From a virus (lineage: Duplodnaviria > Caudoviricetes): a DNA stretch of 59,063 bases. Location of the stretch: positions 1 to 59,063 of the IMG/VR virus record IMGVR_UViG_3300048550_000839. The stretch is one strand, 5' to 3'. The first letter of the stretch is position 1; each line of letters starts with the position of its first letter. The translations under genes and the position numbers were made by a program. Shown one piece after another: positions 20 to 53,476 of the stretch. The notes under the pieces are model-generated. The model ran no database searches. It was not told the DNA's origin and was given only the letters and a program-made list of their open reading frames with translations.

Positions 20-1477
20 TTAAGTCTCCTCAAATAGTTCTCCAAACTTAGTGCTGGCATTTACTGTTTTCTTACCAACATTAAGTCTTGTACCAATTAC
101 TTGCATCCAGAACTTTGAATATTTAGTGATTAGATCTAAACTTTTTTGTCTATCTTTAAGACTAAAAATTTCATCTACAACTTGTTTAAATTCAATACGT
201 TCAAAACGCTCATCGATTAACATATATGGATATTGTCCTGTATCATAACGTTCATTTGCTCGTTGTGTACTTTCTATATGCGTCCATACATTGTGGCCCA
301 TTTGTAATGCATAACTAAATGAGTCCCAAGAAGTTTTACCTTCCTTTCCAATTTTATTTACATCGCCTGGTTTGTAATAACAAATATCACTTACTTTGCA
401 ATGTTTACTAATAGGCGAATCTTCAAACGCTTTTAGTATTCCGTCTGTTTCTACCACATCTTTAAATAATCTACTATCTGTGGCATACTTTTTATCATCT
501 GCACCCGGCGCCATCATATAGCTCCACTTACCGCGATCTTCAATACGTATAGTATGATACACTTGTCCATTTGCAGTTGCTAAAAAAGGGCTTGCACAGT
601 CATATGTAATCATAAAGTTTTTATTATGATACTTACGCACTGCACGTTGAATATCTGTTAGCAACACAGCCCATTCTAATTTACTTGTACCCAAGAAGTG
701 CATTACATCGTGTACACCTTCTTCTAATAATCCATCGTGTATTTGATGAACAAGTCTACGCAAAATTAGATCAACATCGCACATATTTTGTCCACCCATT
801 GCCCATCCATCAAAGTGTGTTTCTGGGTATTTTGCAGGATCACAATAGTCTTTGAATTCTTCATACCAACTGTCTGCATCAGCGTGATTGCTGCCTTGCA
901 ACACGTTTAGCACTTTGAAGTTGCCACGTCTATTAGCCATATAGTATTTTGCATTAATGTGTGTTGCATCTACAGCATCTTGATAACTGTGAATGTTTGC
1001 TGCTTTTGCTGCTTTAGGATCTTGGAATGTCCAAGTTGGAATATCCAACATCATTCCGTAGTCCATATACTCTTCCATCCAGTTTACAACCAGTTCACGC
1101 TTTTTGGCAGCTTTTGGACAATTTGGATTAGTCCAGTCGCCTTCCCAAAGTCCTTTAGCAATTTGAAAACCACCAGAGTCGCCTAACAACCAACTATTTT
1201 CTCTATCTCGGTTTCGCAACATATCTTCTTTTTCAACGTGCTTATTTACATCTAAGTCTGCGTGTCCTGCAGAATAGAGCGCCCATTTATAGTGGAACGC
1301 TCCTTCTTTAGAGTTCAAAAAGTTAAGACCTTCTACACCATTTAAGCCAGCTGGAACACGATTGTAATCAACGTATTCGCCATAACGTTGTTTGCCTACA
1401 AACGTAGCATAAAAGCCACTTATACTAGGCAAAAATACAGCATAATCATTTTGTGTTTCAGTAAGATTTGTTTTCAT
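20..1477 (-). CDS. dpdA: TGT-fold guanine transglycosylase, DpdA-like (7-deazaguanine DNA modification)
   Basis: TGT motifs in order: GDSGGFQ, MMLDIP, VLQG, GWAMGG, HFLG, YDCASP, late HN; canonical CxCxxC Zn site is degenerate; phage context with queD in window. Confidence 0.75.
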   Translation of the reverse strand: MKTNLTETQNDYAVFLPSISGFYATFVGKQRYGEYVDYNRVPAGLNGVEGLNFLNSKEGAFHYKWALYSAGHADLDVNKHVEKEDMLRNRDRENSWLLGDSGGFQIAKGLWEGDWTNPNCPKAAKKRELVVNWMEEYMDYGMMLDIPTWTFQDPKAAKAANIHSYQDAVDATHINAKYYMANRRGNFKVLNVLQGSNHADADSWYEEFKDYCDPAKYPETHFDGWAMGGQNMCDVDLILRRLVHQIHDGLLEEGVHDVMHFLGTSKLEWAVLLTDIQRAVRKYHNKNFMITYDCASPFLATANGQVYHTIRIEDRGKWSYMMAPGADDKKYATDSRLFKDVVETDGILKAFEDSPISKHCKVSDICYYKPGDVNKIGKEGKTSWDSFSYALQMGHNVWTHIESTQRANERYDTGQYPYMLIDERFERIEFKQVVDEIFSLKDRQKSLDLITKYSKFWMQVIGTRLNVGKKTVNASTKFGELFEET

Positions 1478-2205
1478 TATTTTTGTTGTGCTGGAAGGAT
1501 ATAGTCGTATGTTGCCATACCGCTGTCTACGCTAATCTTCATAGCGCCTTGATCTGTAATACTCATTGTTTTGTCGCCATCTAAATTCAAAATAGCAAGT
1601 GTTTGTGCCACAGGCCAAGCCCAAGTATGTGTTAATGAACCTGTAATGCCGTATTCAAAAGTAAATGTACCTGCGTGTGTAGCTTCGTCTCCAAAGTAAA
1701 AGTTTAAATTACCGTCTTCTGTTTTTACTTGAAATACTGTTTCTTCGCTGTGTGCGCCAGACATAAGTTTCATACGTTCAATTGCTGCCATATTAGGCTG
1801 AATCTCTACGTCATATGTGTTAACTTTAAATTTAACGCTTTTTAGTTTTTCTTCAATGATTGCTTTGTTCATAAAGCGATAATCATTTTCAAAATCGCCT
1901 GCTTTGTTTTCAAAATGAATATGTGTTGGCATAACTTCGCCGTTGCGCTCGGCTTGCACAACTTCAATTTTTGCTTCATCTTTGTACTCTGGATTCTTTA
2001 AATGATAATCCAGTTTGCCTAAATCTGGCATACCAAATGTACCAACAAATTCTCCAACCGGTGAATGTGTTGTTGCAGTCATAATTACACTACGATCATC
2101 AGCCATACTATCAATTTGAGTATCGTCTTCTGCTGTAACCTTCAATGTAGTAATAAAACCTAATCTGTGTGTATGACTCACAATGTCTTGTAGAATATCT
2201 TGCAT
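1477..2205 (-). CDS. Putative DNA polymerase sliding clamp (gp45/PCNA-like)
   Basis: 242 aa, PCNA-like C-terminus YDYILPA; near polB, clamp loader also in window. Confidence 0.65.
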   Translation of the reverse strand: MQDILQDIVSHTHRLGFITTLKVTAEDDTQIDSMADDRSVIMTATTHSPVGEFVGTFGMPDLGKLDYHLKNPEYKDEAKIEVVQAERNGEVMPTHIHFENKAGDFENDYRFMNKAIIEEKLKSVKFKVNTYDVEIQPNMAAIERMKLMSGAHSEETVFQVKTEDGNLNFYFGDEATHAGTFTFEYGITGSLTHTWAWPVAQTLAILNLDGDKTMSITDQGAMKISVDSGMATYDYILPAQQK

Positions 2206-2226
2206 AGTGTTCTCCTGTATCGTTGT

Positions 2227-2255
2227 ATTATACTAAATTTTGCCTTAGTTGTCAA
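2227..2255 (-). promoter_or_regulatory. sigma70-type promoter for clamp-dpdA
   Basis: Perfect TTGACA-17 nt-TATAAT on minus strand. Confidence 0.85.
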
Positions 2256-3006
2256 GTAATTGTTTTAGTTTTGTGTTGTAATACACTGCCGCTGACAGTG
2301 TATTTAGATTAATATTTTTTTCTGCTGCCATTTTTAATAGCGCACTTGTGTCTTTGGGAAAGCAATGGCCTCCCCAGCCTCTGATACCATCTTCTGGATA
2401 TACATAGGTATGACTATCAGATATGCGATCATCTGATGCTACTCCTGCTCGGACTTGATTAAAGTTTATATTATGTCCTTCACAGAAATCGTATATTTCG
2501 TTAAAGAAACTAACTTTAGTTGCTAAAAATGCATTACGAAAATATTTTATTGCAATAGCTTCTTCTGGCTTAACAATAGCTAACTGCATCTTAGACCAAT
2601 TGTAACTATATTGGTCTCTCCAATAATCTGTATCACCACTTAAAATAACACTGTCGAGATGTTTAACATCGTTCATAAAGTTTGCAGCCCGTAAAAACTC
2701 TGGACTAAAACATAATCTATGATTAGGAAATTTTTCCTTTAAACTGTGCCATCCGTCTAAACTTATTGTGCTTTTAATCATTATTGGCGTATAATCGGGT
2801 ATTTTAGATACAACATCAAAAACTGCACTCATATCGCAAGTACCATCATCTGCTGGCGGCGTTGGTACACAAATAATAACAGCACTTGTATTTTCTAAGT
2901 CGGCGTGCATATTTTTTGGAGGATCGTATATTAAAATTTCTCGCCTATGACCTGTAAATAATAGTTCGTGTGCTTTGCCTACAAATCCATACCCTGCTAT
3001 AATCAT
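2245..3006 (-). CDS. UDP-glucose/GDP-mannose 6-dehydrogenase family protein (short form)
   Basis: GYGFVG Rossmann motif, ICVPTP, IKSTI, SPEFLR, GWGGHCFPKD; start moved to ATG 3006 (ATGA overlap with upstream gene). Confidence 0.85.
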   Translation of the reverse strand: MIIAGYGFVGKAHELLFTGHRREILIYDPPKNMHADLENTSAVIICVPTPPADDGTCDMSAVFDVVSKIPDYTPIMIKSTISLDGWHSLKEKFPNHRLCFSPEFLRAANFMNDVKHLDSVILSGDTDYWRDQYSYNWSKMQLAIVKPEEAIAIKYFRNAFLATKVSFFNEIYDFCEGHNINFNQVRAGVASDDRISDSHTYVYPEDGIRGWGGHCFPKDTSALLKMAAEKNINLNTLSAAVYYNTKLKQLLDN

Positions 3007-3716
3007 CCTGCTAACTTTGCCTCCTGAAAGTAACTTAATCTTTCCCACGTGTCTCGCCAATCTTTTACATTAAAACAACGATTTTTGTCTAGTTTTACTG
3101 CAAGCGGCCAATCGTTGCCTCCTGGAGATACTTTATCACCAAAGAAGTAAATTTTATCATCGTTGTTAAAATCATCAAGTATTTGACTTTTATCTGCGCC
3201 TTTATTGTAAATGTCTATTCCAGTTTCCCCACCAACAGTAGCAGTAATATCTGGAAATTTCATATTAATTTCTAGTGAAATACTTTCACGTTCTTTGTTT
3301 GCTAAATCGTGTTTAATATATAGTTTTCGTTGTTGTAAATTACAATTGCGTCCTATTATACTAAAATTAATAGTTCCTGTGCGTTCTTCAATATGATTAC
3401 CAGTACGCAAAGGAAATGGACTTGCCTGCAACCATCCCTCCATAAGATTATATAATTCTTTAGGAGCTGAAAAATTCTTACTATTCACACGTTTGCCCTT
3501 GAACCATACATCGTTACCACTACAATTGTAACACGTAACTACCGACTCGGTAATATCTTTTCCTAATTGTTCTACAGTTTTTGCATAATCACTTCCGGTA
3601 ACTAGCCAAACTTTGTTGTGTGCCATAAATGATTTAAAAAACTCTTTAAATTCTGGATCTATTTTTTGTCTACTTGGTGTAAGTGTGCCATCAACATCGA
3701 ATATAAATTTATTCAT
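3003..3716 (-). CDS. HAD-IIB phosphomannomutase-like (eukaryotic PMM family) protein
   Basis: FDVDGTLT, VTGSD, INFSIIGR, FFGDKVSPGGND. Confidence 0.8.
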   Translation of the reverse strand: MNKFIFDVDGTLTPSRQKIDPEFKEFFKSFMAHNKVWLVTGSDYAKTVEQLGKDITESVVTCYNCSGNDVWFKGKRVNSKNFSAPKELYNLMEGWLQASPFPLRTGNHIEERTGTINFSIIGRNCNLQQRKLYIKHDLANKERESISLEINMKFPDITATVGGETGIDIYNKGADKSQILDDFNNDDKIYFFGDKVSPGGNDWPLAVKLDKNRCFNVKDWRDTWERLSYFQEAKLAG

Positions 3717-4123
3717 CTGTCACATACCCTTCTTCTTAAATCACTTGTGCTAAAACGGTGTTCACGTCTATTAAAGTGTACTTCAATTCCTCTTGCGGCA
3801 CAAGTAGCTCTACCAGTAAATTCTTTTTCTCTATATTCTTCGCCTAAGAATCTAACATCTATTTGAAACAGTTCTAGTATGTCTATCAAGTCTTCCTCTG
3901 TTTGATACGGAACAATTTCATCTACAAATTTAAGTCCATTAAGTTGTGCATAACGTTCTACCATTGTTTGTACAGGCTTATTTTTTGTATCAGGTCTATC
4001 AATTGTAGGATCACTTTGCAGTCCTACAATAAGATAATCGCAATTTGCCTTTGCTTCACGCAACATACCAATATGTCCTGCGTGTAACAAATCAAAAGTA
4101 CTACAAGTAAATCCTACTTTCAT
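3713..4123 (-). CDS. Glycerol-3-phosphate cytidylyltransferase (TagD)-like
   Basis: TFDLLHAGH (HxGH), LIVGLQSD, RFSTSDLR. Confidence 0.85.
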   Translation of the reverse strand: MKVGFTCSTFDLLHAGHIGMLREAKANCDYLIVGLQSDPTIDRPDTKNKPVQTMVERYAQLNGLKFVDEIVPYQTEEDLIDILELFQIDVRFLGEEYREKEFTGRATCAARGIEVHFNRREHRFSTSDLRRRVCDR

Positions 4124-4509
4124 TTGTGTCTCTTTCCGTCAAATACACACGTAAACTCTAATGCAGTGTCGCTTGTGTTATGTACTCTATGAAATACATT
4201 ATCGTGTATTAATACAGTACTGCCAGCTTTTACTTTGATGTCATCGCCATCAAGTGACATTTTGCCTTCACCCTTTGTAAAGATATATACTTCTTCTTGG
4301 CCGGCGTGCATATGTCCTGTTGTACTTTGTTTTGCATTTAACCTAGTAGTGCTTACTACTAAGTTGGTAAGTTCAGTGTTGTCTACTACACGATATCTTT
4401 TGTCATCTTTAATAATGTCGCCAGCAATTTGGAAATTATCACCTGCTTTTAATCGTGACTTATATCGTCGTTTGTTGATAGCTTCTGTAGTCATTTGTAT
4501 TAATTCCAT
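4120..4509 (-). CDS. Cupin domain protein (sugar isomerase-like)
   Basis: HMHAGQEEVY...G...FHRVHN cupin motifs. Confidence 0.75.
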   Translation of the reverse strand: MELIQMTTEAINKRRYKSRLKAGDNFQIAGDIIKDDKRYRVVDNTELTNLVVSTTRLNAKQSTTGHMHAGQEEVYIFTKGEGKMSLDGDDIKVKAGSTVLIHDNVFHRVHNTSDTALEFTCVFDGKRHK

Positions 4510-7181
4510 TCAAATAAATTATTAAATGTTGTTTTTTGTTTTGTGCTTTCTAAATCATATTTCAACACGCCAATCAAGTTGTCTAGTTTGTTGTCAATAA
4601 TAACTTCTTCCATTGCATCGCCATCAAATGGCAGTTCCTTGAACCATTCTGGAATACGTAATTCGTCTGTTGGATATGCTACACTTGTATACCCCAGTGG
4701 ATTCTGTTTTAGTTTGCAAACAATAACTTTCATACCATCTACAATCTCTTGTGAATACTTGTCGCCGTTCATACGTTTAAGTGTATTCCAATTGATACTT
4801 GCTCTTACGTGTCCAGGCATATTTGCTTTACCTTGCTTTTCTTCAAGACGTTGATAGTGTCCAATCTTATTTGCACGTTTGGGTGAACCTTTTTCAAAAC
4901 CCGGACGTTCTTTAAACTCACGCCTAAACTCACTAATACTTTCTAATAGATTTTTTTCATCTTCTAGTCCTAATACCCTATCAAGCAATGTTTTCAAATA
5001 GTCTTGCATAAACACAGGGGTATCACTGCGTTTCAAGTCCAAGCCCATTGCCTTAACTTTACCTAAACTACCTTCTTTGTCTTTTCTATCGCCTTCTAAG
5101 TCATAAACACGCACTGCATAACGTTTCTTTGTAATAAACAAGCCTGTGTCTGCAACAACTTCTCTTGCTGCTGCAATCACTTCACTGCGTGGACGTGGAC
5201 AATGGAAGGCTTCACGCATAAAGTCTGGGAAAGTTGTGTTTGCTTGTTCGCATAATTGATCATACAGCGTAATAACATTGTCTTTGCCCCACGGAATACT
5301 ACCTGTAGCAATTTCATCTTTTAATACAGGATATGCACTAAAATAAACAGAATCTGTATCGCCGTATATAATAGCTTTACCGACGTGATTATATTCACCG
5401 GTAATAATCTTATTCACTTCTGCACTCATATGTTTTGCAATACATCTACCTGTTAGTGTTGTACTCTGTCCGATACGTTTATCAAAAAATCTACAACCTG
5501 GATTAAGAATAGCACCATACAAACTGTTCAAGTTAATCTTTTTAACAAGTTGTCTTTTATCCCAAAACGCTATTTCTGTGCTATTGTTTGCATCAATGGC
5601 TTTGCGCATTTTTGCTTGTAGTTCTTTACGTTCAGCATACCAACGTTTTAGTAACCCTGGAACAACACCTTCAACTTCTGTAGTAAAAATTGTACCATTA
5701 GCACTAAGCATCCAAGGTTGATTACTGTCAAAAATTAGTTTCCAAATCTCTGCACCACTTAGTACGTGACTGGTGCCATCTTCCAAGTCCAAGTGCAACG
5801 ATACATCTTTGCGTTGTTCCATTACAGCATCATATTCTAGCGTAGCAAACTTGCCTTCCCAAGCACCTGCAAAACTTTTCTTTTCTAGTGTAGTTGCATT
5901 GTGCAAAAACTCATCTGTTAATACTGGACGAATCTGTCCTACAATAGTTTCCGGCGCCATATTCAATGCACGAATAATACTTGGATACAGACTGTTTAAG
6001 TCCATTGAACCAATCCACTCGTGTACGCCTTTTTTTGGAAATGCAACATAAGCGCCTGCTGCTGCTGTGTTGCCTTCGTGATTCATTCTGTTAGGCACCT
6101 GCATACCACGCCTGTGTGCTTCGTTAACAATAGCTTGCTCTGTAACTGCAACTGCACCTGCTGTTGTTTGTAATAGCACTGTGTTGTCGTGCGCAATTTC
6201 ATTTGCAAGATCAATAAAACGTAGTTTCTTATCAAGTTTGTCTAGCAGTGCAACGTCTTGTCTGTTGTATTCAATAAACTTTTCAAAGTCGTTGTTGTAA
6301 AGCTGATCAAGTGTGCCTTCATACACAGTCTTGTTCTCGCCTACTTCCATTTCACCAATAGCGTCTAGTCTATATGTGTGACGTTCTTCATATGTGTACT
6401 TGCGATACAAGTTAAGATAGTCCATATGTACTCTTCCGATAGTATCATACGTTTCACTTGTCTTGCCAAACTTTTCATATTCTCTACGCTTAGGCAACTG
6501 CCCCCATAAACAGAAACGTCTGGTATCATCTTTGCTTAATACACGTTGTATTCTATTAACAGTGTATGGAACGTCATAGCCTTCGCTGTTCCAACCACTA
6601 TGAATATCAGCATCCTCAATTAGGTCAAGAAATGCTTCCAGCATATCTCCTTCACCTTGTTTGCTATTCGGATATAATATACAAGTATCGCCCCAGCGTT
6701 CTTTACACATTGCCCTTGCTTCTTCAATTGGCAACCCTTTGGGAGGCATAGCAACTGTAATTAACATATCTAACCATTGCAAATGTACTGTAATAGCAGT
6801 AATAGGCATAAATGGATCTTCAACTGGAGCAAATCCACGTTCTGGATCAAAGTCAGTTTCAATATCCCAAAACGCCACATTCAACTTTGGTGCATCTTGG
6901 TTCAAGTAATTTTCACTTAAACATTGAAATATAGGATTTACATCCGATTCAAACATATTCTTGCCTTTATTAATAGCAAGTTCTTTTCGAAAGTCTTTTG
7001 TGTTTTTACATACTACACGTTGTAACGGATCACCGAAGATGCTTTTGTATTTGCCACGTGGATCTTCATAGTACCAAGTGTATTTGGCTTGATATTCATT
7101 ATAAAGTCGCTTTCCGTCTTTGCGTTCTACTGCACGAATAATATCAGCGTCTCTATCAAAAAATGCATCTACATATGGCAT
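4500..7181 (-). CDS. Family B DNA polymerase (gp43-like)
   Basis: ExoI DIETD, YNRQDV, SMDLNSLYPSII, KKINLNSLYG, YGDTDS, KKRYA. Confidence 0.97.
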   Translation of the reverse strand: MPYVDAFFDRDADIIRAVERKDGKRLYNEYQAKYTWYYEDPRGKYKSIFGDPLQRVVCKNTKDFRKELAINKGKNMFESDVNPIFQCLSENYLNQDAPKLNVAFWDIETDFDPERGFAPVEDPFMPITAITVHLQWLDMLITVAMPPKGLPIEEARAMCKERWGDTCILYPNSKQGEGDMLEAFLDLIEDADIHSGWNSEGYDVPYTVNRIQRVLSKDDTRRFCLWGQLPKRREYEKFGKTSETYDTIGRVHMDYLNLYRKYTYEERHTYRLDAIGEMEVGENKTVYEGTLDQLYNNDFEKFIEYNRQDVALLDKLDKKLRFIDLANEIAHDNTVLLQTTAGAVAVTEQAIVNEAHRRGMQVPNRMNHEGNTAAAGAYVAFPKKGVHEWIGSMDLNSLYPSIIRALNMAPETIVGQIRPVLTDEFLHNATTLEKKSFAGAWEGKFATLEYDAVMEQRKDVSLHLDLEDGTSHVLSGAEIWKLIFDSNQPWMLSANGTIFTTEVEGVVPGLLKRWYAERKELQAKMRKAIDANNSTEIAFWDKRQLVKKINLNSLYGAILNPGCRFFDKRIGQSTTLTGRCIAKHMSAEVNKIITGEYNHVGKAIIYGDTDSVYFSAYPVLKDEIATGSIPWGKDNVITLYDQLCEQANTTFPDFMREAFHCPRPRSEVIAAAREVVADTGLFITKKRYAVRVYDLEGDRKDKEGSLGKVKAMGLDLKRSDTPVFMQDYLKTLLDRVLGLEDEKNLLESISEFRREFKERPGFEKGSPKRANKIGHYQRLEEKQGKANMPGHVRASINWNTLKRMNGDKYSQEIVDGMKVIVCKLKQNPLGYTSVAYPTDELRIPEWFKELPFDGDAMEEVIIDNKLDNLIGVLKYDLESTKQKTTFNNLFEWN

Positions 7182-11629: not shown

Positions 11630-12358
11630 TTACATTCCCATTTTTACACTAAGTGCAGCATACAACTGATCTTTAATACTGTCAACACTTGATTCTTTTG
11701 CATTTTTAGTTGCTGTAGCATACATTACTGCTTCTGCATCATCACCGTAACGATCTTTAAAGTCGCTTTTGTTTTTCTTCATACCTTTAACAAGACGTTC
11801 TTTTTCTTTTTCTTCACCTTTGGAAAGTTCTCGCTCATTTACAGATTCTTCCATACTTGTTGCGGCTGCTGTTGCTGCTTTGTTAATTTCTTGTTCACTT
11901 GCATCTGGCATAATGGCTTTAATCGCACGATAGATTGCTTTATACAATTCACCAGTTGGGCTAAATCCTATTTTTTTAGCAATACTTCCTTGACCAAAGC
12001 TTTTGTCAATAGCAGTCGTAAATGCATCATCATCTTCGCCAACTAACTTGTCTTTTAATGGATGTTTAGTCCGCCCTGGTTCTGCTTTAGGCATTGGATC
12101 TTTACCACGAGCATAGTCACCGTGTTTTTGACCTTCATTTATCTTAATGCCTGCTAGTGCTGCAAAATCTCTAACACTGTAATCTTTATCCATTTGTAAT
12201 GAGCCTTCTGGCACCGCGGCACTTTCTGCAATATAGTCTACTTTTTCAACAGGTGCCGGAGCATTGCCACCTGCTTGTGCTCGTAGTTGTGCTAATTCTT
12301 GTTGTGGATCCACTGGATCCATTGCAAATAGTTTGTGTTGTAATGCATTGTAATCCAT
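11630..12358 (-). CDS. Hypothetical protein, putative head/internal protein
   Basis: Modules separated by (I/V/L)xE sites; C-terminal VKGMKK..FKDRYG...VMYATATK module. Confidence 0.6.
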   Translation of the reverse strand: MDYNALQHKLFAMDPVDPQQELAQLRAQAGGNAPAPVEKVDYIAESAAVPEGSLQMDKDYSVRDFAALAGIKINEGQKHGDYARGKDPMPKAEPGRTKHPLKDKLVGEDDDAFTTAIDKSFGQGSIAKKIGFSPTGELYKAIYRAIKAIMPDASEQEINKAATAAATSMEESVNERELSKGEEKEKERLVKGMKKNKSDFKDRYGDDAEAVMYATATKNAKESSVDSIKDQLYAALSVKMGM

Positions 12359-15896: not shown

Positions 15897-16592
15897 CTAT
15901 TTATCTGTGTAAACTAATTGCTCTATTCTTTGTATGTTATCGCCTACTATCATTTGTGCTAATAATAATGCTTTTGTGTCGCGAACATAAAAATAATAAC
16001 CTTTTACATAACCTGAGGAAGCACACGTTTCCTTAGCTTTTGCACCTATTCTACCTAAATGAGGATTGCTATCTAACCATTTTGCTAGTGCAGGCTTACC
16101 ACGTTGTCTTCCCAGTGTAATTTTGTATTCATAATTTGGAGGAGTATCTACTAAAATGATATTTTTATTATTTTGTAAAAGGCTTACCTGCAATGGATCT
16201 GGTTCATAAAATTCTATCCAATTTACTTTTAATTTATTAGATAGTCCAATTAAAAATTTTCTATCATTAGCATACAACATTAAATTATTTAATTCAACAC
16301 GTATTAAATAATCAATTTCTGTTTTGACTAAATGTCTATATATTGTTATTGCATCATAATAATGTTGATTATCGATTCTTTCTCTAAAAAGATTTCCGGA
16401 AAGATCTATTCCAGTTTTCTTAAAATTATGATGTCTATTACATTCGTCTAATTTGCCTTTTGCATAACTCAACGTACCTTCTTTTTGGAACTCTGTCCTA
16501 AAGAAAGACGAACATTGGTTGCGTATACTTAATTTATAAAGGTACTTATTATAATGTAATTTTTTAGATTCAAACAGTTTCATTTTCTTCAA
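15897..16592 (-). CDS. Hypothetical protein
   Basis: 231-aa ORF overlapping the clpA end. Confidence 0.55.
   Translation of the reverse strand: MKKMKLFESKKLHYNKYLYKLSIRNQCSSFFRTEFQKEGTLSYAKGKLDECNRHHNFKKTGIDLSGNLFRERIDNQHYYDAITIYRHLVKTEIDYLIRVELNNLMLYANDRKFLIGLSNKLKVNWIEFYEPDPLQVSLLQNNKNIILVDTPPNYEYKITLGRQRGKPALAKWLDSNPHLGRIGAKAKETCASSGYVKGYYFYVRDTKALLLAQMIVGDNIQRIEQLVYTDK
15898..15905 (-). promoter_or_regulatory. Late promoter motif GATAAATA
   Basis: 5 nt upstream of ATG 15892, at the head of the internal-protein cluster. Confidence 0.55.
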
Positions 16593-18816
16593 CTAAACAA
16601 TCTAATTGTATCTCATCATTCCTAAAATCAATAGTAACACTACCTCCGTTTTTTAAATTGCCAAATAACATCTTTTTACTTAATGGTCTTTTAATTTGAT
16701 TATCAATTACACGTTGTAAAGGACGAGCACCCATTTTGGGATTAAACCCTTTATCAACTAAGAAGTCAAGTGCTTCGTCTGTAATTTCGATTGCAATGTC
16801 TTTTTCCTGTACTTGCTTTTTAAGTTCTAGTAAAAACTTACCAACAATTTTCATCATAACAGGTTTATCAAGTTTACCAAATGTAATTACACCGTCTAGT
16901 CTGTTACGGAACTCTGGTGCAAAGTATTTTTTAAAGTCTGTATCTTCATATTCTTTATCAATATCTTCGCCGAATCCGATAGCATTTTTTTCTGCTTCTT
17001 GTGCGCCTAAGTTAGTTGTTAAAATAAGTGTACAATTACGAGCATCTGCTTCTTTACCATTAGACCCTGTGATTTTGCCATTATCCATAATTTGTAATAA
17101 GATTTGTGATACATCTGGATGTGCTTTTTCGACTTCATCTAATAGTAGTACACAGTTTGGATTCTCTTGCAATTTAATAATTAATTGTCCTGCATCTTCT
17201 TCAAATCCAACATATCCAGGAGGCGATCCAATCAGTTTACTGATACTATGCTTTTCTTGAAATTCGCTCATATCAAACCGCACTAATTTCACACCTAGTT
17301 GTTCTGCTAATTGTTTACTAAGTTCTGTTTTTCCTACACCTGTTGGCCCCATAAACACAAAAGATCCTACTGGCTTGTTTTCACTTTTTAGTCCTGCTTG
17401 TGCAACTAGTATTTTGTCTACAATATCTTCTATAGCTTTATCTTGTCCATACACAACATTTTTTAAGTTATCTTCTAAGTGTGCTAAATTTTCACTTTCA
17501 CGTTCTTTGACTTGCTCTTCAGGTAAGTTAATCATTTTTGCCAGTTCAAATTGAATATTGTCTTCAGTGACAACTTTATTTTCTATTTGATCATTTACTT
17601 TGAACCTACTACACGCAACATCTATTAAGTCAATTGCTTTATCTGGCAATTTTTTGTCAGTTTGGTATTTTACACTGAGTTTTACCGCAGCAGCAATTGC
17701 TTCTTCTGTAATAGTTGTATTATGATAACTTTCATAATACTGTTTAATACCAGTAAGGATTTTGACTGTATTTTCTTCTGATGGTTCATCTACGTTTACT
17801 CTTTGGAATCTACGCATTAATGCACGATCCTTTTCAAAGGATTTACGATACTCTTCCCAAGTTGTACTTGCAACAACTTTAAGGTTGCCTTTTGTCAAAG
17901 CAGGCTTTAACATATTTGCTAAGTCATTGCTACTATTGCTTCCGCTTGCTCCTGCACCACTAATCATATGTGCTTCGTCAATAAACATAATAGTTTTGCC
18001 TTTTTTCTGCAATGCAGAAATGACTAATTTAAAACGTTCTTCAAAATCACCTCTGTATTTAGATCCAGCAAGCATACTACCAATATCTAATGTATAAACA
18101 TTATATTCCTTGAGAAATTCCGGCACATTGCCATTAACAATATTAAATGCTAGTCCTTCTGCAATAGCAGTTTTACCAACACCTGGTTCACCAACCATTA
18201 ATACATTGCTTTTCGTTCTACGTCCAAGTGCAAGAGCAACTTGTTCTAATTCTTCACTACGTCCAATAATGGGATCAATTTTATTGTTTTTTACAGCAGC
18301 GTTTAAGTCATCTGTAAACTCTTTAAGTGCTTTATTTGCAATACCTAAATTCTCAGGGCTCTCGTCATCAATTTGCCTATTAAATTCAGTGCTAATGTAA
18401 TCTGCAAACTGCTGTTTGTTTACATTTGCTTGCTGTGTTATAAAATAAGCATAACTTTTCTTTTCACTAAGTATGCTTAAAAAAACATCTGAAATTTCGA
18501 TCATATTACGCATACTAAAAAGCACTTGTGTAAACGCTCTATTCAATACACGTTCTACTGTTTGTGTCTTAGCAGGTTTATAATCTTTTCCTTTTTCTAC
18601 AACAATATTATCAAGTTTTGTTTTTAAAAAATTTTCTAAATTTTTCTTGATATATTCAACATCTGTACCATATCCAGTTACAAGATCACAGAAATTATTT
18701 TCACACAACATTGCATATAGTAAATGCTCTAATGTGACATATTCGTGTCGTAGTTTTTTTGCATCTTTTACTACTTTGTCAAATACAAGTTGTAATTCTT
18801 TAGATGGTTCTACCAT
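16570..18816 (-). CDS. clpA: ATP-dependent Clp protease ATP-binding subunit ClpA
   Basis: N-domain HEYVTLEHLL, GEPGVGKT, FIDEAH, GPTGVGKT, LLLDEVEKAHPD, ClpP-binding IGF loop; no ClpB coiled coil. Confidence 0.93.
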   Translation of the reverse strand: MVEPSKELQLVFDKVVKDAKKLRHEYVTLEHLLYAMLCENNFCDLVTGYGTDVEYIKKNLENFLKTKLDNIVVEKGKDYKPAKTQTVERVLNRAFTQVLFSMRNMIEISDVFLSILSEKKSYAYFITQQANVNKQQFADYISTEFNRQIDDESPENLGIANKALKEFTDDLNAAVKNNKIDPIIGRSEELEQVALALGRRTKSNVLMVGEPGVGKTAIAEGLAFNIVNGNVPEFLKEYNVYTLDIGSMLAGSKYRGDFEERFKLVISALQKKGKTIMFIDEAHMISGAGASGSNSSNDLANMLKPALTKGNLKVVASTTWEEYRKSFEKDRALMRRFQRVNVDEPSEENTVKILTGIKQYYESYHNTTITEEAIAAAVKLSVKYQTDKKLPDKAIDLIDVACSRFKVNDQIENKVVTEDNIQFELAKMINLPEEQVKERESENLAHLEDNLKNVVYGQDKAIEDIVDKILVAQAGLKSENKPVGSFVFMGPTGVGKTELSKQLAEQLGVKLVRFDMSEFQEKHSISKLIGSPPGYVGFEEDAGQLIIKLQENPNCVLLLDEVEKAHPDVSQILLQIMDNGKITGSNGKEADARNCTLILTTNLGAQEAEKNAIGFGEDIDKEYEDTDFKKYFAPEFRNRLDGVITFGKLDKPVMMKIVGKFLLELKKQVQEKDIAIEITDEALDFLVDKGFNPKMGARPLQRVIDNQIKRPLSKKMLFGNLKNGGSVTIDFRNDEIQLDCLVEENETV

Positions 18817-19336
18817 TTACTTTCCTTTTAATTTTTTTGTTTCTTTTCTTTTCTGCCAAGTTTAATTTTAATTTAGATACTCTATTAATGTATTGTACAC
18901 CTTGTAAATGATCGTACTCGTGTAAAAATATTCTGGCATCGATATCATCATATTTTGTTTCTACGTGTATAATATTTTTACCATCAGCTGTAAGTGTATC
19001 GAACTCTACCATACAACTCATAGGACGTCTTACTTTCAAAAACAAGTTAGGATGGCTTAAACAACCTTCAATTCCTAGTTCCATTTCTTTACTAATGCCT
19101 TTTATTTGCGGATTAATTACTGTAGTGACATCGCCGTAATCTTTATTCAATAAAGTTTTCATTACAAAAATTTGTCCGTCAAATCCTACTTGATTAGCAC
19201 TTAATCCAAGTCCACTATGTTGTCTCATTAATGCCATCATATCATAGGCAATAGGTGCAGGATGCATATTTGCTGTATCAAATGCCCTTACTGGGTTTTC
19301 TAACATTACATCAGGTGCGAGAATTAATTTCATCAT
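18800..19336 (-). CDS. def: Peptide deformylase
   Basis: GLGLSANQVG, EGCLS, HEYDHLQG. Confidence 0.95.
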   Translation of the reverse strand: MMKLILAPDVMLENPVRAFDTANMHPAPIAYDMMALMRQHSGLGLSANQVGFDGQIFVMKTLLNKDYGDVTTVINPQIKGISKEMELGIEGCLSHPNLFLKVRRPMSCMVEFDTLTADGKNIIHVETKYDDIDARIFLHEYDHLQGVQYINRVSKLKLNLAEKKRNKKIKRKVNGRTI

Positions 19337-20108
19337 AAAGTTGTTTTATCCTATCTAAATCTTCATACCTATCTAATTTAGGTGTTATTCCTTTTACCTC
19401 TACATACAAATTACCTGTATGTTGTGTTTTATAATCCTTGATTCCGTAGCCCGGAATACTTAATATTGTGCCTGGATTTGTGCCTGGAGGTATCTTAATG
19501 TTAAGAGGTCCGCCGCCTAATTTTTCGATAACCATTTCTGTGCCTAAAATAAGTCCTAATACATTTATACTACAATTTGTGCGTAAATGCAACCTATCTC
19601 TTACAAATTTAGGGTGACTTTTAATAATAATTTTTGCTAATAAATTTCCTCTAGGTAGGTTTGTATAAGTGTTATCTCCTAATCCACTTAATTGTAAAAT
19701 TGTACCGTGTTCTAGTCCTGCTGGCACATTTATGTTTGCAACGACTTCTTCTCCTGACCTTAATCTATATCTTCCTACAATATTTTTGCCCTGTGCTATA
19801 TCTTCTAAAGAAACTGTAACATTTATAGTAACGTCAGCATTGCGTCTTTGTTGTCGTCTCACTCCTTGATTAAAAAATTGTGAAAATATGTCATTCATAT
19901 TTCCTGTGTTAAATTGAGCTTGCGGATTGTCGTACTCAGCTTTTTTGTCCGGATTTTTTAGTGTATCATAAGCTTCACTAATTGACTGGAAAACTTTTTG
20001 ATCGCCGCCTCTGTCAGGATGGTGTCGCATAGCCAGCTTTTTATAAGCCCGTTTGATATCATCAGGAGATGCTTCTTTACCCACGCCTAGTCTTTTGTAA
20101 TAGTCCAT
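19311..20108 (-). CDS. DnaJ-class co-chaperone without Zn finger (CbpA-like)
   Basis: DYYKRLGV...HHPDRGG J-domain plus DnaJ_C domain. Confidence 0.9.
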   Translation of the reverse strand: MDYYKRLGVGKEASPDDIKRAYKKLAMRHHPDRGGDQKVFQSISEAYDTLKNPDKKAEYDNPQAQFNTGNMNDIFSQFFNQGVRRQQRRNADVTINVTVSLEDIAQGKNIVGRYRLRSGEEVVANINVPAGLEHGTILQLSGLGDNTYTNLPRGNLLAKIIIKSHPKFVRDRLHLRTNCSINVLGLILGTEMVIEKLGGGPLNIKIPPGTNPGTILSIPGYGIKDYKTQHTGNLYVEVKGITPKLDRYEDLDRIKQLYDEINSRT

Positions 20109-27120: not shown

Positions 27121-27461
27121 TAATCTCCCTTTCCTGGAGCTTCAGAAAAATGCTCCATTTTATTTTCTACACCGTGCCATTCGTCTGCATCTTCGGGTAC
27201 ATCTTCAGAACGCATTTCAGTAATAACCGGCCACATATCTGCATATTTTTGATTAAATTCGACCCACTTGTCCATACCAGGAGCTGTGTCAGGAAGGATT
27301 GCATCTGCAGGACATTCAGGTTCACATACACCGCAATCAATACATTCAATTGGATTAATCACAAGCATATTTTCCCCTTCATAGAAACAATCTACAGGGC
27401 ACACTTCTACACAATCCATATGTTTGCACTTGATACACTGATCATTTACTACATATGTCAT
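27120..27461 (-). CDS. fdxA: 7Fe ferredoxin (FdxA type)
   Basis: [18 protein letters not shown]...[13 protein letters not shown]. Confidence 0.93.
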
Positions 27462-28372
27462 AATGCTCCTAATCTAATTAATGTTGCTGCTAAGTTTATT
27501 TCTGGATCTACAACTAATGTATGATCCACCAACCCTTGCTTAATAATTAGCACTGCTTGATCCTGTTGTTCGTCTGTTCCGAAAAGTTCAATATTGTCAT
27601 AAAGCCAACGATATATTTCCTCCATTTCTTCTGCTCTCACAGTACCACACAACAGTTTTCTAGCATCGTGAATCTTGCCTGCCTTGAACAGCTCAACCAT
27701 ATCCAGTTTCCAGTCTGCTTCGCCACTGTCACCTTCGTTAGGTTTTGTAAGCACACCTTCTACACTGTTCATTTGTACTGTGTTGATACACTTACGCAAG
27801 TCTGGATAAGTTGCTTTTACATAAGTGTCAAGTGTATCCAAGTCTGGAGTCACACCTTCTGTGATAAGAATCTCTGCAACTCTTGCTGTAAACTCTGTTT
27901 GGTCAATCTTAGCAATATGGAAGCCTTGGCATCTACTGTGGATAGCAGGAATAATTCTGTTGGGATAGTTACAAGTTAAAATAAATCTACTTGTAGTATG
28001 ATACTCCTCCATCACACCACGTAATGCCGCTTGTGCGTTTGGCGACAAGTAATCAGCCTCATCAAGTAGTACAACCTTAAAGTCACCAAAAGGAATCATC
28101 TGTACAAACGCAACAATCTTATCACGCACATCATCTACACTATTTGTGCGACTTGCGTTAATCTCAAGTATGTCTAATGGATTAACATCTAGCTCATTAA
28201 ACAACAACTTAGCAAGAGTAGTTTTACCAATTCCAGCATTGCCACTGAACAGCAAATGTGGAATAGTTTTGTCTTTGATCCAAGTCTTTACTTGATTACG
28301 TTGTGCGTCATCTCTAAATACATACCCGTCCACTGTTTTTGGACGATATTTTTCTACCCATAATTCTTTCAT
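27458..28372 (-). CDS. Clamp loader ATPase subunit (gp44/RFC-like)
   Basis: [30 protein letters not shown]. Confidence 0.93.
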
Positions 28373-30900: not shown

Positions 30901-31278
30901 TTATGCTTTTCCAATACTAGCACCTTGGGGTTGTTCTTTGCTCCAACCCATAATGCTTTCTGCTTCTACCATACGTAGTGTTGATTCACCGGTTCCTTCA
31001 TCGACATCAATTCCACGGGTCCAACGTCCGTGTTCTACAAGGATCCAATCTCCAACTGAATAATTATCCTTGTTTTCAGGACCAACTGCGTGTACACGAC
31101 ACCAGCGTGGATAAATTCCACGTTGTGTACCATCATCACCTGTAAGTATCAAGCCACCTGTAGTAACTTGTTCTCCAAAATGCATATCACTTACAATTAC
31201 TCTATTTTTTATAGGGCTGAGTTTACCCTTTACTTTTGGTGTAATTTTAAATCCACCACCCATACCGTCTGAGCTCAT
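30901..31278 (-). CDS. GroES-like co-chaperonin
   Basis: LSPIKNRVIV...TTGGLIL...VHAVGP...VGDWIL. Confidence 0.75.
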   Translation of the reverse strand: MSSDGMGGGFKITPKVKGKLSPIKNRVIVSDMHFGEQVTTGGLILTGDDGTQRGIYPRWCRVHAVGPENKDNYSVGDWILVEHGRWTRGIDVDEGTGESTLRMVEAESIMGWSKEQPQGASIGKA

Positions 31279-31743: not shown

Positions 31744-32301
31744 TTAGTCACGTAAAAATTCACGCCAGTCTAAATTGTAATTAATGCTATTAATACGATG
31801 TACGCCAATTAAGTATAATACATAACTTGCTACACTTGATCCACGTCCTACACCCCATATAATATCATTTTCACGCATAAAGTCTACAAGATAGATCATA
31901 TAGCGTAGCAAGTCCACCATACCGCGTTCTCTAAACGCTTCAAGTTCCTCTTCTACTCTTTTCCATTCTGGTAATGTCGTAGTGTCAATCTTATCTATTT
32001 GTAGTTTTTCCATAAGTCGTGATGCTATCCAACTTTCGTATCCAAGTGTTTTGTATTCATCAGGCATAAACCATTCACTTTGACATACACCGTCAAAAGT
32101 TTTTTGATCTACATCTAATGGAATATACTTTTGTAATTTGTCAAGACCCTGTTCTTCCATAGCCTTGTTAAACTTGTCTACATCGTCTGATTCGTCACAT
32201 AGAACCACGTGGCATTTTTCTACATTGCCACTATAAATCATATCTAACAAATCACGGTTAGAGAATCGTGGAATACCTAATTCATCTGTTTTCATAAGCA
32301 T
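31744..32301 (-). CDS. DNA polymerase III alpha (DnaE)-like fragment
   Basis: RVEEEL...YMIYLVD...WGVGRGSSVASYVLYLIG...EFL matches DnaE GxGRGS region; only 185 aa. Confidence 0.8.
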   Translation of the reverse strand: MLMKTDELGIPRFSNRDLLDMIYSGNVEKCHVVLCDESDDVDKFNKAMEEQGLDKLQKYIPLDVDQKTFDGVCQSEWFMPDEYKTLGYESWIASRLMEKLQIDKIDTTTLPEWKRVEEELEAFRERGMVDLLRYMIYLVDFMRENDIIWGVGRGSSVASYVLYLIGVHRINSINYNLDWREFLRD

Positions 32302-51441: not shown

Positions 51442-52130
51442 CCCCAATTTTTCTTAACCCAACTATCATTTGCATCTAAAGGATTTGGTTCTCCGTGAAA
51501 TACCGCAACACTACAATCGTTTAAGATTTTAGGAGGTGCATCTACAATAAAGTTTCTTTTACCTTTGTGTAATTGCAAATCACGTCTGTCACGCATTTCC
51601 CATTTATAACTTTGTATCCATTCATCTGGCCAATAACTAAAATTTCTTATATTTTTATACATCCAATCTTGGTCGCCTCTGTGTTTTTGCATATGCATTT
51701 TAGGATCATTTTTAAATTGCTGCCAAATAGGATCAAACATTCCTGTTTCTAAACGAAATACACTGCTATTGATTTTATCAAAATTATGCCTTATACTTCT
51801 GTTAAAATCTCTTATAATACAAAACTGTTTCGGCTTATGTGTAAACAATTTATCAATATTTCTAAATACAATTACATCTAGATCAAAATACAGCATTGTA
51901 CCTTGTATAGGCATATCTTTACTGAAGAACCAAGGCTTGAACCACCAACCGTCTAAGTTCATAGTGGGCAATTGCATAGTTGTAATTTCTTTGTCAATAT
52001 CTTTGCGATTTTCGGTAAAGCAAATAAATTGATGAGGTATATTACAATGCCTTTGTGTCATTGCATATAACTTATTTACATATTCAGCAGAGTATTTCTT
52101 TCCCCATTTCAAACAAATTATATAATTCAA
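51438..52130 (-). CDS. GT-A fold glycosyltransferase (GT8-like)
   Basis: CLKWG.KY..EYVN, YFDLD (DxD), NSSV, GDQDW, FHGEPNP. Confidence 0.8.
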   Translation of the reverse strand: MNYIICLKWGKKYSAEYVNKLYAMTQRHCNIPHQFICFTENRKDIDKEITTMQLPTMNLDGWWFKPWFFSKDMPIQGTMLYFDLDVIVFRNIDKLFTHKPKQFCIIRDFNRSIRHNFDKINSSVFRLETGMFDPIWQQFKNDPKMHMQKHRGDQDWMYKNIRNFSYWPDEWIQSYKWEMRDRRDLQLHKGKRNFIVDAPPKILNDCSVAVFHGEPNPLDANDSWVKKNWG

Positions 52131-52531
52131 AGCACTCCATCTAACCTCATTTGTTTTCTTATTTTTGTAGCACTGATATTGTGTATGTCTTCACCTAAAT
52201 CGTGTTCTGTAAAAGTATAACCTACACCTCTACCATAGCTTATGTCTACAATGTTAGGCACTCTTGTAATAATATACTTATCAGCATATTTGTAACCTTC
52301 TTTTTCAAGTTCTTTCTTGATATTTTCAATTACATCCATTACTTGAAAAGGATTATCGTCTTGCACCATAGTTCTGCCGCCGCCAGCATCTTCTTTGAGT
52401 GGAACAGTCCTTACCATAATAATAACTTGTCCTGTTTCTTTTAGCGCACGTTTGAATAATTCTGTATGTCCTTTGTGCCAGGGTTGAAATCTACCTAGCA
52501 TTTGTGTTGTAGGTGAAAACTCGTTAAACAT
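52127..52531 (-). CDS. HxGH nucleotidyl/cytidylyltransferase-like protein
   Basis: GRFQPWHKGH, ISATKIR. Confidence 0.8.
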   Translation of the reverse strand: MFNEFSPTTQMLGRFQPWHKGHTELFKRALKETGQVIIMVRTVPLKEDAGGGRTMVQDDNPFQVMDVIENIKKELEKEGYKYADKYIITRVPNIVDISYGRGVGYTFTEHDLGEDIHNISATKIRKQMRLDGVL

Positions 52532-53419: not shown

Positions 53420-53435
53420 TAGTTTCTCCTTGTAA

Positions 53436-53470: not shown

Positions 53471-53476
53471 ATTAGT

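Follow-up and report, generated by a model that had tools for sequence, protein, structure and literature searches.

Genes at the locus

The 59,063 nt IMG/VR record IMGVR_UViG_3300048550_000839 was analysed over its whole length, here called the window. It covers part of the genome of a giant marine phage and stops at the stop codon of a gene for a 485 aa protein, and gene content 3' of that gene was read from relatives. The features discussed below are listed in Table 1.

An earlier note, made from the sequence alone, had described this end of the window as a DpdA-like gene with a tRNA-guanine transglycosylase (TGT) fold, translationally coupled to a putative sliding clamp gene behind a perfect sigma70 promoter. 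The promoter was as described, with TTGACA and TATAAT separated by 17 nt, and the first 8 kb, the part that was scanned, contains no other 12/12 site. Related viral loci retain it approximately 50 nt ahead of the clamp start, with a match of 12/12 in 37 of 79 loci and at least 11/12 in 70 of 79. The TAATG overlap on which the coupling was based is present in the window but is not conserved, as the clamp and enzyme genes overlap in only 14 of 74 loci. The intergenic gap is <50 bp in 40/74 loci and at most 1010 bp. In 79 of the 80 related viral loci, the enzyme gene lies downstream of that for the clamp. The pair may make up an early two-gene unit under a host-type promoter.

Table 1. Features of the window that are referred to in the text
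Feature	Position	Strand	Evidence
Probable DpdA-family enzyme with predicted TGT fold, 485 aa	20..1477	-	ORF, AF2 model, Foldseek, VIA-align, hhalign
Disordered C-terminal tail of the enzyme, residues 465-485	23..85	-	AF2 pLDDT
FGELF motif of the enzyme, F478-F482, putative clamp-binding peptide	32..46	-	Conservation; predicted complex 0.58 vs best control 0.00
TAATG, overlap of clamp stop and enzyme start	1475..1479	-	Sequence
PCNA/gp45-type sliding clamp by predicted fold, 242 aa	1477..2205	-	AF2 model, Foldseek
AGGAGA, Shine-Dalgarno-like, 5 nt ahead of clamp ATG	2211..2216	-	Sequence
Sigma-70-type promoter-like TTGACA-17-TATAAT	2227..2255	-	12/12 matches
T4 gp43-type family B DNA polymerase (PolB), 893 aa	4500..7181	-	Pfam, PHROGs
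FNNLF motif of PolB, F886-F890, 3 residues short of the C-terminus	4512..4526	-	Sequence
RFC/gp44-type clamp loader ATPase	27458..28372	-	Pfam, PHROGs
QueD-like 6-carboxytetrahydropterin synthase (PTPS)	52943..53419	-	Pfam PTPS E 1.6e-17

Clamp, polymerase and clamp loader

The 242 aa protein encoded upstream of the enzyme had no match in Pfam or NCBIfam, and in PHROGs it matched only phrog_12062, which is of 'unknown function'. Its AF2 model (pLDDT 91.4) was informative. The best Foldseek match was PCNA (1plq; E 3.7e-11, TMq 0.67), the alignments spanned approximately 255-270 columns, and the listed matches were PCNA or viral clamps, among which it was nearer to PCNA than to gp45. Homologues in some jumbo phages are annotated 'PCNA' or 'sliding clamp'. 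Judged by its modelled fold, the protein is a PCNA-like sliding clamp, as the earlier note had supposed. A second 242 aa ORF (11630..12358) was considered as a clamp paralogue and rejected (BLASTP E 1.8). In phage PA5oct, the clamp is annotated as a structural protein on the basis of virion mass spectrometry.

PolB contains Pfam DNA_pol_B and belongs with phrog_262 (E 9e-192), and its C-terminal third matches Straboviridae polymerases. The clamp loader contains Pfam AAA and DNA_pol3_delta2 and matches phrog_168, 'clamp loader' (E 1.9e-76). This RFC-like loader would load the PCNA-like clamp.

Fold and active site of the enzyme

No family in Pfam, PHROGs or NCBIfam was matched by the 485 aa protein, and searches of PDB sequences with phmmer and the A1 profile returned nothing for it. 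Pfam PF01702 did not match it, and among 56 diverse members of its family only two were matched (best E 0.043). As these sequence-only searches were blank, its identity rests on fold and profile-profile evidence. The AF2 model has a pLDDT of 93.3, and all 50 of the PDB entries listed by Foldseek were TGTs (best E 1.1e-7). VIA-align gave Z scores of 19-20 over approximately 300 residues to bacterial, archaeal and eukaryotic TGTs, including 2ash_A (Z 19.8, rmsd 4.4, 306 residues aligned).

Comparison with E. coli Tgt using hhalign (prob 92.9%, E 3.6e-7) paired GDSGGFQ, LDIPT and YDCASP in the enzyme with TDSGGFQ, FDECT and FDCVMP in Tgt. D100, D145 and D293, which are invariant in the 56 family members, lie opposite three Asp of E. 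coli Tgt that we take, from the Z. mobilis and E. coli enzymes, to be the Asp of DSGGFQ, the substrate-binding Asp and the nucleophile. The zinc site of the tRNA TGTs has the form CxCxxC...H; the CxCxxC motif is absent from the enzyme sequence, and the hhalign match to Tgt stops before that region. The chemistry is expected to be TGT base exchange via the conserved Asp residues.

Relationship to known DpdA proteins

The nearest known relative is PA5oct QCG76197.1 (35% identity, E 2e-70), which is listed in Supplementary Data S1 of PMC10516641 as DpdA3, alongside FolE, QueD, QueE and DpdL. A tblastn search with the PA5oct protein returned the same 13 phage records and no others. With the A1 profile, no match was obtained in the CP220 and phiST records, and phiST DpdA3 found none in the CP220 record. 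The phage DpdA1-4 proteins (Hutinet 2019, PMC6884629; Cui, Hutinet et al. 2023, PMC10516641) share with the window enzyme the TGT fold and the aligned invariant Asp residues. The phiST DpdA3 (CGPG_00065), which is grouped with Campylobacter phage proteins in the DpdA3 subfamily, is 259 aa long compared with 485 aa here and only remotely similar (hhalign prob 66%, 82 columns; Foldseek E 3.3e-3). The hhalign probability for nt-1 DpdA2 is 94.8%, and the nt-1 model R9TGF0, possibly the DpdA2, gave a Foldseek E of 4e-11. By profile and predicted fold, nt-1 DpdA2 is no more distant from the enzyme than phiST DpdA3 is.

We conclude that the 485 aa protein is probably a DpdA-family enzyme, a DNA 7-deazaguanine transglycosylase, judging from its alignments and model, and the TGT fold and DpdA likeness proposed earlier have held up. 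Within the tRNA-guanine transglycosylase superfamily it appears to belong to the DpdA branch, as a long form.

All of the closest solved folds are tRNA enzymes, as would be expected if the protein acted on phage or host tRNA rather than DNA. We regard a tRNA substrate as highly improbable. The gene is in a clamp operon and its product has a polymerase-type tail, the viral models closest to it are phage DpdA-type proteins, and the PA5oct relative has been published as a DpdA3 (PMC10516641). No tRNA genes were found within the window. A convincing QueC is also lacking: in five relatives, QueC (PF06508) gave partial matches only (E 1.1e-6 and 1.4e-3) and was treated as absent or unproven.

Precursor pathway genes

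The only pathway gene in the window encodes a QueD-like protein, which matches NCBIfam QueD with an E of 1.3e-9, under the curated cut-off. It is the sole precursor gene here because the contig ends at the enzyme stop codon. In one relative (L032), DpdL (60.5% identity to PA5oct DpdL), FolE (Pfam E 1.2e-39) and QueE are found at most 7 kb downstream, and QueE is present in 4/4 long relatives. In Vibrio phage 2.275.O, the enzyme homologue adjoins QueF, YhhQ, QueC and FolE. A GT1-like protein travels with the gene cluster. The relatives of the window enzyme resemble DpdA systems in their association with FolE, QueD, QueE and DpdL. PA5oct, which encodes the relative listed as DpdA3, appears to have modified G in its DNA, which an extract of PMC12191111 reports to be resistant to five restriction enzymes with G-containing sites.

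In double-stranded phage DNA, the enzyme would replace guanine with a 7-deazaguanine, probably 7-deazaguanine itself or CDG, made by FolE, QueD, QueE and DpdL. It is also conceivable, though quite unlikely, that a clamp-tethered enzyme inserts no 7-deazaguanine and is instead glycosylase-like, or exchanges a different base or acts on a different target. The missing Pfam TGT match and canonical zinc motif, the remoteness of the characterised DpdAs and the linkage of the GT1-like protein to the cluster are compatible with this. Against it are the correspondence of the three invariant Asp to those of E. coli Tgt, the co-occurrence of FolE, QueD, QueE and DpdL in relatives, and the apparent presence of modified G in PA5oct.

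A C-terminal motif shared with the polymerase

The enzyme ends STKFGELFEET (...NASTKFGELFEET) and PolB ends TTFNNLFEWN (...QKTTFNNLFEWN), so the FxxLFE ending that the earlier note had recognised in both is present. In the enzyme model, residues 465-476 have pLDDT <50 and are followed by a short helix at 478-481. The protein thus appears to consist of a catalytic barrel, a disordered linker and then FxxLF with acidic residues. The T4-type precedent invoked for such an ending was also appropriate: T2 gp43 ends ASLDFLFG at a position equivalent to the PolB tail, and LDFLF is the T4 gp45-binding motif according to an extract of PMC6212786. PolB carries the same peptide at the place where T4/RB69 polymerases bear their clamp-binding tail.

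Within the window, 5 of 158 ORFs of at least 60 aa have [FY]xx[LFM]F, here called the strict motif, in their last 15 residues. Two are the enzyme and PolB, and the other three (60-82 aa, plus strand) are antisense inside minus-strand genes. Across the 80 related viral loci, the strict motif is present in 71/75 complete enzyme tails and in 71/72 complete PolB tails. Elsewhere in these loci it was found in only 3 of 1378 same-strand ORFs of at least 80 aa, one of which is a piece of PolB. In a 256 kb relative with 471 ORFs, the enzyme and PolB are the sole plausible genes marked by the motif. The tail common to the enzyme and PolB exceeds chance.

In 41 enzyme sequences, F482 is invariant and L481 is at least 90% conserved. 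Four of the 75 relatives are missing the strict motif, three of them with quite different tails. In the distant family, represented by 100 sequences of at least 400 aa chosen at 50% identity, the strict motif was found in 26 and a relaxed form in 45, compared with means of 4.6 and 16.3 for shuffled tails; 53 representatives match either pattern and 47 match neither. A 70 aa window in the body of the same proteins yielded 0 strict and 3 relaxed matches. The motif is kept across relatives with 30% identity while the linker diverges.

Pairs of tails from other phages are similar. In PA5oct, PolB has HFDSLFGW and DpdA3 has SFNSLFD, and in Vibrio phage 2.275.O the pair is NNTDLFDW and NNNDLFGW. A DNA methyltransferase (N6/N4) of the 256 kb relative (G001) has the C-terminus LDNDLFEVDNG, and an LF-type tail is kept in 77 of 120 listed homologues of it.

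A tail of this kind might have no docking role, and act as a linker or stability element or as a turnover or packaging signal that resembles the polymerase end by chance. The motif is short, and the enzyme and PolB tails do not covary in the clade (paired identity 3.60 of 8 positions compared with 3.52 when shuffled, with a value at least this high in 875 of 5000 shuffles). The annotation of the PA5oct clamp as structural also makes a virion association of the module conceivable. However, chance resemblance does not sit well with a motif that persists at 30% identity despite a diverging linker, has a background of only 3/1378 ORFs and is also borne by a third DNA enzyme, the methyltransferase. 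We consider a tail without a docking role to be very unlikely.

Predicted complex of clamp and tail

Docking on the clamp trimer, which the earlier note had suggested modelling, was predicted with three copies of the clamp and enzyme residues 446-485, in three runs with three controls. The score was 0.58 (runs 0.57, 0.61 and 0.58) and the best control scored 0.00, a difference that supports docking of the enzyme tail weakly. The runs share at least 52% of contacts, with a partner pLDDT of at least 46. In calibration, the pass mark was reached by 116/157 solved complexes and 2/215 mismatched pairs, and scores of 0.60 or less at the pass mark came from 18 of the 157 solved complexes and both passing mismatches; the job itself was set up differently from its calibration. 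As PCNA-peptide complexes have already been solved, the pass may reflect memory.

The motif could instead dock on another replisome partner common to PolB and the enzyme, such as the single-strand-binding protein, the helicase or the clamp loader. That a motif is specific and shared with PolB does not identify the protein it contacts, and the complex job yielded no interface. The motif has an internal position in 35/75 relatives, where a second conserved acidic motif (LDETKLEELEDEQL) comes after it, a hint of more than one partner. Several observations point to the clamp rather than elsewhere. The tail occupies the clamp-binding position of T2/T4-type polymerases, as given in the same extract of PMC6212786, the clamp and enzyme genes stand in this order in 79/80 loci, and the control in which the clamp was replaced scored 0.00 compared with 0.58. 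A different partner is, in our view, unlikely.

On the strength of the sequence comparisons and models, the enzyme tail is probably a clamp-docking peptide with which the enzyme rides the replication clamp. The FxxLF peptide would dock into a hydrophobic pocket of a clamp subunit, and the clamp would carry the enzyme along the new duplex, which would allow processive modification during or just behind replication. The complete explanation, a clamp-tethered DpdA-type enzyme that places 7-deazaguanine into DNA during or just behind replication, draws on the folds, the aligned Asp residues, the conservation and specificity of the motif, synteny and the pathway genes of relatives, and we consider it moderately likely to be correct.

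Comparison with known and proposed clamp clients

The T4/RB69 gp45 clients described in an extract of PMC6212786 (the gp43 C-terminal tail, gp33 and the LDFLF loop of T4 DNA ligase) likewise rely on short peptides, hydrophobic-aromatic in character and placed on flexible segments, that are common to the polymerase and other DNA enzymes. They differ in the motif, which is LDFLF rather than [T/x]FxxLF[D/E], and in that the client here is a base-exchange enzyme.

The same idea, of a DNA-modifying enzyme on the clamp acting during replication, was put forward for T4 alpha-glucosyltransferase and gp45. According to an extract of a preprint (bioRxiv 10.64898/2025.12.06.692756), the interaction could be reproduced neither in vitro nor in vivo. 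In the present case, the evidence is a conserved polymerase-type peptide and gene linkage rather than biochemistry. In the literature searched, this disputed case was the only report of a phage enzyme that modifies DNA and is a client of the clamp.

In eukaryotes, DNMT1 binds PCNA through a PIP-box, which couples DNA methylation to replication. There, too, it is a short peptide that brings a DNA-modifying enzyme onto the clamp. The likeness is functional only, as DNMT1 differs from the window enzyme in enzyme class, domain of life and motif. The tailed N6/N4 methyltransferase of G001 is the nearer analogue of DNMT1.

Significance

DpdA enzymes are a known kind, and the one in the window carries, on the sequence comparisons, a probable clamp-docking tail. 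We found no published report of such a tail on a DpdA-type enzyme, and the word 'clamp' is absent from the main text of PMC6884629 and of PMC10516641. The authors of the latter (Cui, Hutinet et al. 2023) concluded that DpdA inserts 7-deazaguanine after replication, and left open the difference between DpdAs that replace <0.1% of guanines and those that replace all. The polymerase-like tail of the window enzyme is lacking from phiST DpdA3 and nt-1 DpdA2, so a tether is unnecessary for DpdA function in general. As complete replacement has been reported for the tail-less phiST DpdA3, a tether is also no general explanation of full replacement.

More tentatively, and we hold this to be possible but rather doubtful, the clamp may be a hub for genome camouflage in this abundant marine jumbo clade and in PA5oct-like phages, recruiting the DpdA-type enzyme and, in some members, an adenine or cytosine methyltransferase. 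Hypermodification would then be processive and co-replicative, which would aid modification of most or all guanines, and the second acidic motif would bind a further replisome component.

A clamp-docking tail would offer a concrete mechanism, open to testing, by which base exchange could be coupled to the replication fork. With the T4 glucosyltransferase example now in question, it would also, if true, be a clear phage case of a DNA-hypermodifying enzyme that uses the sliding clamp. The enzyme family has many members in metagenomes: among 8000 candidates scored, there were matches to at least 7360 clusters at 90% identity. If real, the mechanism would therefore be ecologically widespread.

The enzyme

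The 485 aa protein has no match in Pfam, PHROGs, NCBIfam or PDB sequence searches, and just 2 of 56 members of its family touch Pfam TGT (E 0.043). The family is large, with at least 7360 matching clusters at 90% identity among 8000 scored candidates and 974 matches among 50% representatives (E up to 0.001). An alignment of 56 diverse members revealed that S69, D100, S101, G103, D145, P147, H260 and D293 are invariant, with the GDSGGFQ block part of this set. The AlphaFold2 model is confident (pLDDT 93.3), and among the 50 Foldseek matches listed there are solely Z. mobilis TGT entries (best E 1.1e-7). VIA-align gave Z 19.8, rmsd 4.4 and 306 aligned residues against T. maritima TGT, and Z approximately 19 against archaeosine TGT, mouse QTRT1 and human QTRT1. 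When its profile was aligned with that of E. coli Tgt (prob 92.9%, E 3.6e-7), D100, D145 and D293 fell on the Asp residues of TDSGGFQ, FDECT and FDCVMP, the three catalytic or substrate Asp of TGT. The enzyme sequence lacks a CxCxxC zinc motif. The identity of this protein as a TGT-fold DpdA-family enzyme, which the earlier note had proposed, is well supported.

When the enzyme was compared with phiST DpdA3 (259 aa), the match was prob 66%, E 5.5e-5 over 82 columns in hhalign and E 3.3e-3 in Foldseek, and the A1 family profile found no match in the phiST or CP220 records. The nt-1 DpdA2 outscores phiST DpdA3 (prob 94.8%, E 5.6e-8), and an nt-1 model, R9TGF0, has a Foldseek E of 4e-11. As the DpdA3 label relies on a published table and the phiST match is the weaker, we file the enzyme as a long-form DpdA-family member without a subfamily.

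Relatives and 7-deazaguanine genes

Among cultured phages, the closest relatives of the enzyme come from PA5oct-like Pseudomonas jumbo phages (35% identity, E 2e-70), from Vibrio phage 2.275.O and from Sinorhizobium phage Phosso. Supplementary Data S1 of Cui, Hutinet et al. 2023 (PMC10516641) gives PA5oct QCG76197.1 the label DpdA3, alongside FolE, QueD, QueE and DpdL, and passages of Iyer et al. 2021 (PMC7824862) also ascribe a deazaguanine system to PA5oct. In Vibrio phage 2.275.O, the enzyme homologue adjoins QueF-like, YhhQ, QueC, amidotransferase and FolE genes. Downstream of the enzyme in locus L032, from a 256 kb relative, are a DpdL homologue (60.5% identical to PA5oct DpdL), FolE (Pfam E 1.2e-39) and QueE. 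QueE is found in all 4 long relatives. Across 5 relatives, no convincing match to QueC was found, which agrees with the QueC-less route described for phiST. Taken as a whole, these associations point to DNA, not tRNA, as the probable substrate of the enzyme.

A conserved 352 aa protein adjoins DpdL and the enzyme in L032 (13346-14404, + strand) and PA5oct (EST35_0317, L001:7617-8678). The marine phage and PA5oct versions are 43.6% identical, and the protein has no Pfam or PHROG match. Its Atlas look-alike clusters are auto-named glycosyltransferase family 1, one with PF00534 in 29% of members.

The sole deazaguanine-pathway gene within the window is a QueD-like PTPS. In 52127..59063 (- strand), it is adjoined by nucleotidyltransferase-like and APS-kinase-like P-loop proteins, a 441 aa radical SAM protein with a twitch domain (NCBIfam E 2.2e-96) and, at the contig end, a second radical SAM fragment.

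The clamp and the linkage of its gene to the enzyme gene

The 242 aa protein matches phrog_12062 alone, which is annotated 'unknown function'. Its model (pLDDT 91.4) matches PCNA over the full length (1plq, E 3.7e-11, TMq 0.67), all structure matches listed are PCNA or viral clamps, and some jumbo-phage homologues carry a PCNA or sliding clamp annotation. Thus, the putative clamp of the earlier note has a PCNA fold, and its identity as a sliding clamp is well supported. A second 242 aa ORF of the window was ruled out as a paralogue, being unrelated to the clamp. The PA5oct clamp homologue (EST35_0314, L001:4912-5658) is annotated 'structural protein' on virion ESI-MS/MS evidence, an unexpected label for a replication clamp.

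Positions of features in the window and in relative G001
Feature	Position	Strand	Details
485 aa enzyme gene	20..1477	-	ORF; C-terminus NASTKFGELFEET
TAATG overlap of clamp and enzyme genes	1475..1479	-	read from sequence
242 aa clamp gene	1477..2205	-	ORF
AGGAGA	5 nt ahead of clamp ATG	-	read from sequence
TTGACA-17-TATAAT promoter-like site	2255..2227	-	12/12 matches
UDP-glucose/GDP-mannose dehydrogenase-like, phosphomannomutase, cytidylyl/adenylyltransferase-like, cupin	within 2245..4509	-	four sugar-nucleotide genes separating PolB from clamp
PolB, family B polymerase, 893 aa	4500..7181	-	ORF farther upstream; C-terminus QKTTFNNLFEWN
ClpB-like AAA+ (748 aa), peptide deformylase, DnaJ, weak Cpn10-like	16570..20108 and 30901..31278	-	host-like proteostasis genes
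RFC-type clamp loader	27458..28372	-	
N6/N4 DNA methyltransferase, 290 aa	L103:12362-13234 (G001)	-	Pfam E 6.6e-29; ends ELDNDLFEVDNG
Radical SAM protein, 373 aa	L104:15273-16394 (G001)	-	ends EIDKLFELSEEV

The window spans the entire 59 kb record, and the enzyme stop codon lies 19 bases from the contig end. Of 80 related viral loci (55-87% identity), 79 have a clamp gene upstream of that for the enzyme, and the remaining locus begins just 270 bases ahead of the enzyme. Fewer than 50 bp separate the two genes in 40 of 74 scored loci, and the widest gap is 1010 bp. Translational coupling behind a perfect sigma70 promoter had been claimed. The window does have the TAATG junction and the promoter-like site, the sole perfect one in its first 8 kb, but the two genes overlap in just 14/74 scored loci and coupling is therefore not conserved. 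The promoter-like site is kept approximately 50 nt 5' of the clamp start, matching at 12/12 positions in 37 of 79 loci and at least 11/12 in 70. As the PolB-to-clamp spacing varies from approximately 40 bp to approximately 3 kb among relatives, the sugar-nucleotide block looks like a variable insert.

The sole match of a 185 aa protein (31744..32301, - strand) is to the DNA polymerase III alpha NTPase domain (Pfam E 1.7e-11; phrog_11127 E 1.8e-38), in line with a passage of Iyer et al. 2021 (PMC7824862) on a split, minimal form of Pol III alpha in group 2.2 jumbo phages.

A tail shared by the enzyme and PolB

In the window, [FY]xx[LFM]F occurs within the last 15 residues of 5/158 ORFs of at least 60 aa. 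These comprise the enzyme and PolB plus three ORFs of 60-82 aa on the + strand, antisense to - strand genes. In the enzyme model, pLDDT falls below 50 at residues 465-476, and a short helix follows at 478-481. Across the 80 related loci, the motif is present in 71/75 enzymes with a complete C-terminus and 71/72 complete PolBs, and in only 3 of 1378 other same-strand ORFs, one of them a PolB piece. Thus, the shared tail reported earlier is conserved across homologues, and it is real and non-random. The consensus is x-F-[GDN]-[NEA]-L-F-[ED]-[EV] for the enzyme and T-F-[NS]-[SN]-L-F-[DE]-[FW] for PolB. The two tails are also alike in PA5oct (PolB HFDSLFGW, DpdA3 SFNSLFD) and Vibrio phage 2.275.O (NNTDLFDW and NNNDLFGW, respectively). 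Within the close clade, no covariation of the paired tails was detected (3.60 identical positions of 8 versus 3.52 when shuffled, with the observed value reached by 875/5000 shuffles).

The strict motif is missing from four enzymes. L076 retains NNLFREA; the tails of L008, L009 and L035 are different and longer, and end NFWEIST, DLWENN and SLWEI. These three ends may be an alternative terminal motif. In the 71 motif-bearing enzymes, the motif is terminal in 36 and followed by an acidic extension in 35. In 35/75 relatives (L041, L046, L056, L063, L082 and 30 others), this extension of approximately 25-30 aa terminates in another conserved motif, LDETKLEELEDEQL; the PA5oct enzyme (L001:5995-7617) has DEKLTELEQGLDN at this place.

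In a wider sample of 100 enzyme representatives (50% identity, at least 400 aa), 26 have the strict motif, 45 a relaxed form and 53 either. Shuffled tails gave means of 4.6 strict and 16.3 relaxed, and a body window gave 0 and 3.

Proposed clamp tethering

The window polymerase is a homologue of T4 gp43. The C-terminus of T2 gp43 is EEKASLDFLFG, and a passage of PMC6212786 describes LDFLF as a gp45-binding motif common to T4 ligase, gp43 and gp33. When three clamp copies were modelled with enzyme residues 446-485, each with a separate alignment, the score was 0.58 (runs 0.57, 0.61 and 0.58), compared with 0.00 for the best of 3 controls, with contact agreement of at least 52% and partner pLDDT of at least 46. 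In calibration, with counts that hold only roughly for a multi-copy job with own alignments, the mark was reached by 116/157 solved complexes and 2/215 mismatched pairs; at or below 0.60, it was reached by just 18/157 solved complexes, plus both passing mismatches. As PCNA-peptide complexes have already been solved, the pass may reflect likeness to these. The predicted complex, which came with no interface listing, weakly supports clamp binding by the enzyme tail.

Unlike the window enzyme, phiST DpdA3 and nt-1 DpdA2 have no such tail; complete replacement has been reported for phiST. The nearest phage precedent is the T4 alpha-glucosyltransferase-gp45 interaction, which, according to a passage of bioRxiv 10.64898/2025.12.06.692756, was not reproduced. 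The word 'clamp' is absent from the main text of PMC10516641 and PMC6884629, no DpdA-clamp link was found in the related passages of PMC7824862, 10.64898/2025.12.06.692756 and PMC6212786, and literature on deazaguanine, the sliding clamp and DpdA3 yielded no published report of the enzyme tail. The best explanation is that the enzyme is probably tethered to the clamp via a putative docking tail.

Other candidate clamp clients

Among 471 ORFs of at least 70 aa in G001, a 256 kb relative, the strict motif marks the enzyme and PolB alone among plausible genes. A relaxed search returned two further proteins, a radical SAM protein and a methyltransferase. The former was found with its EIDKLFELSEEV end in L030 and L032 alone, and the window lacks a homologue of it. 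The C-terminus of the methyltransferase consists of a basic stretch and then LDNDLFEVDNG, and 77/120 of its homologues among the matches listed keep an LF-type motif, typically ...RKKQQLDPTLFE, within their final 14 residues. Judging from these tails, the N6/N4 methyltransferase is possibly a second clamp-tethered DNA-modifying enzyme, and a second such enzyme with a tail would fit the idea of the clamp as a hub.
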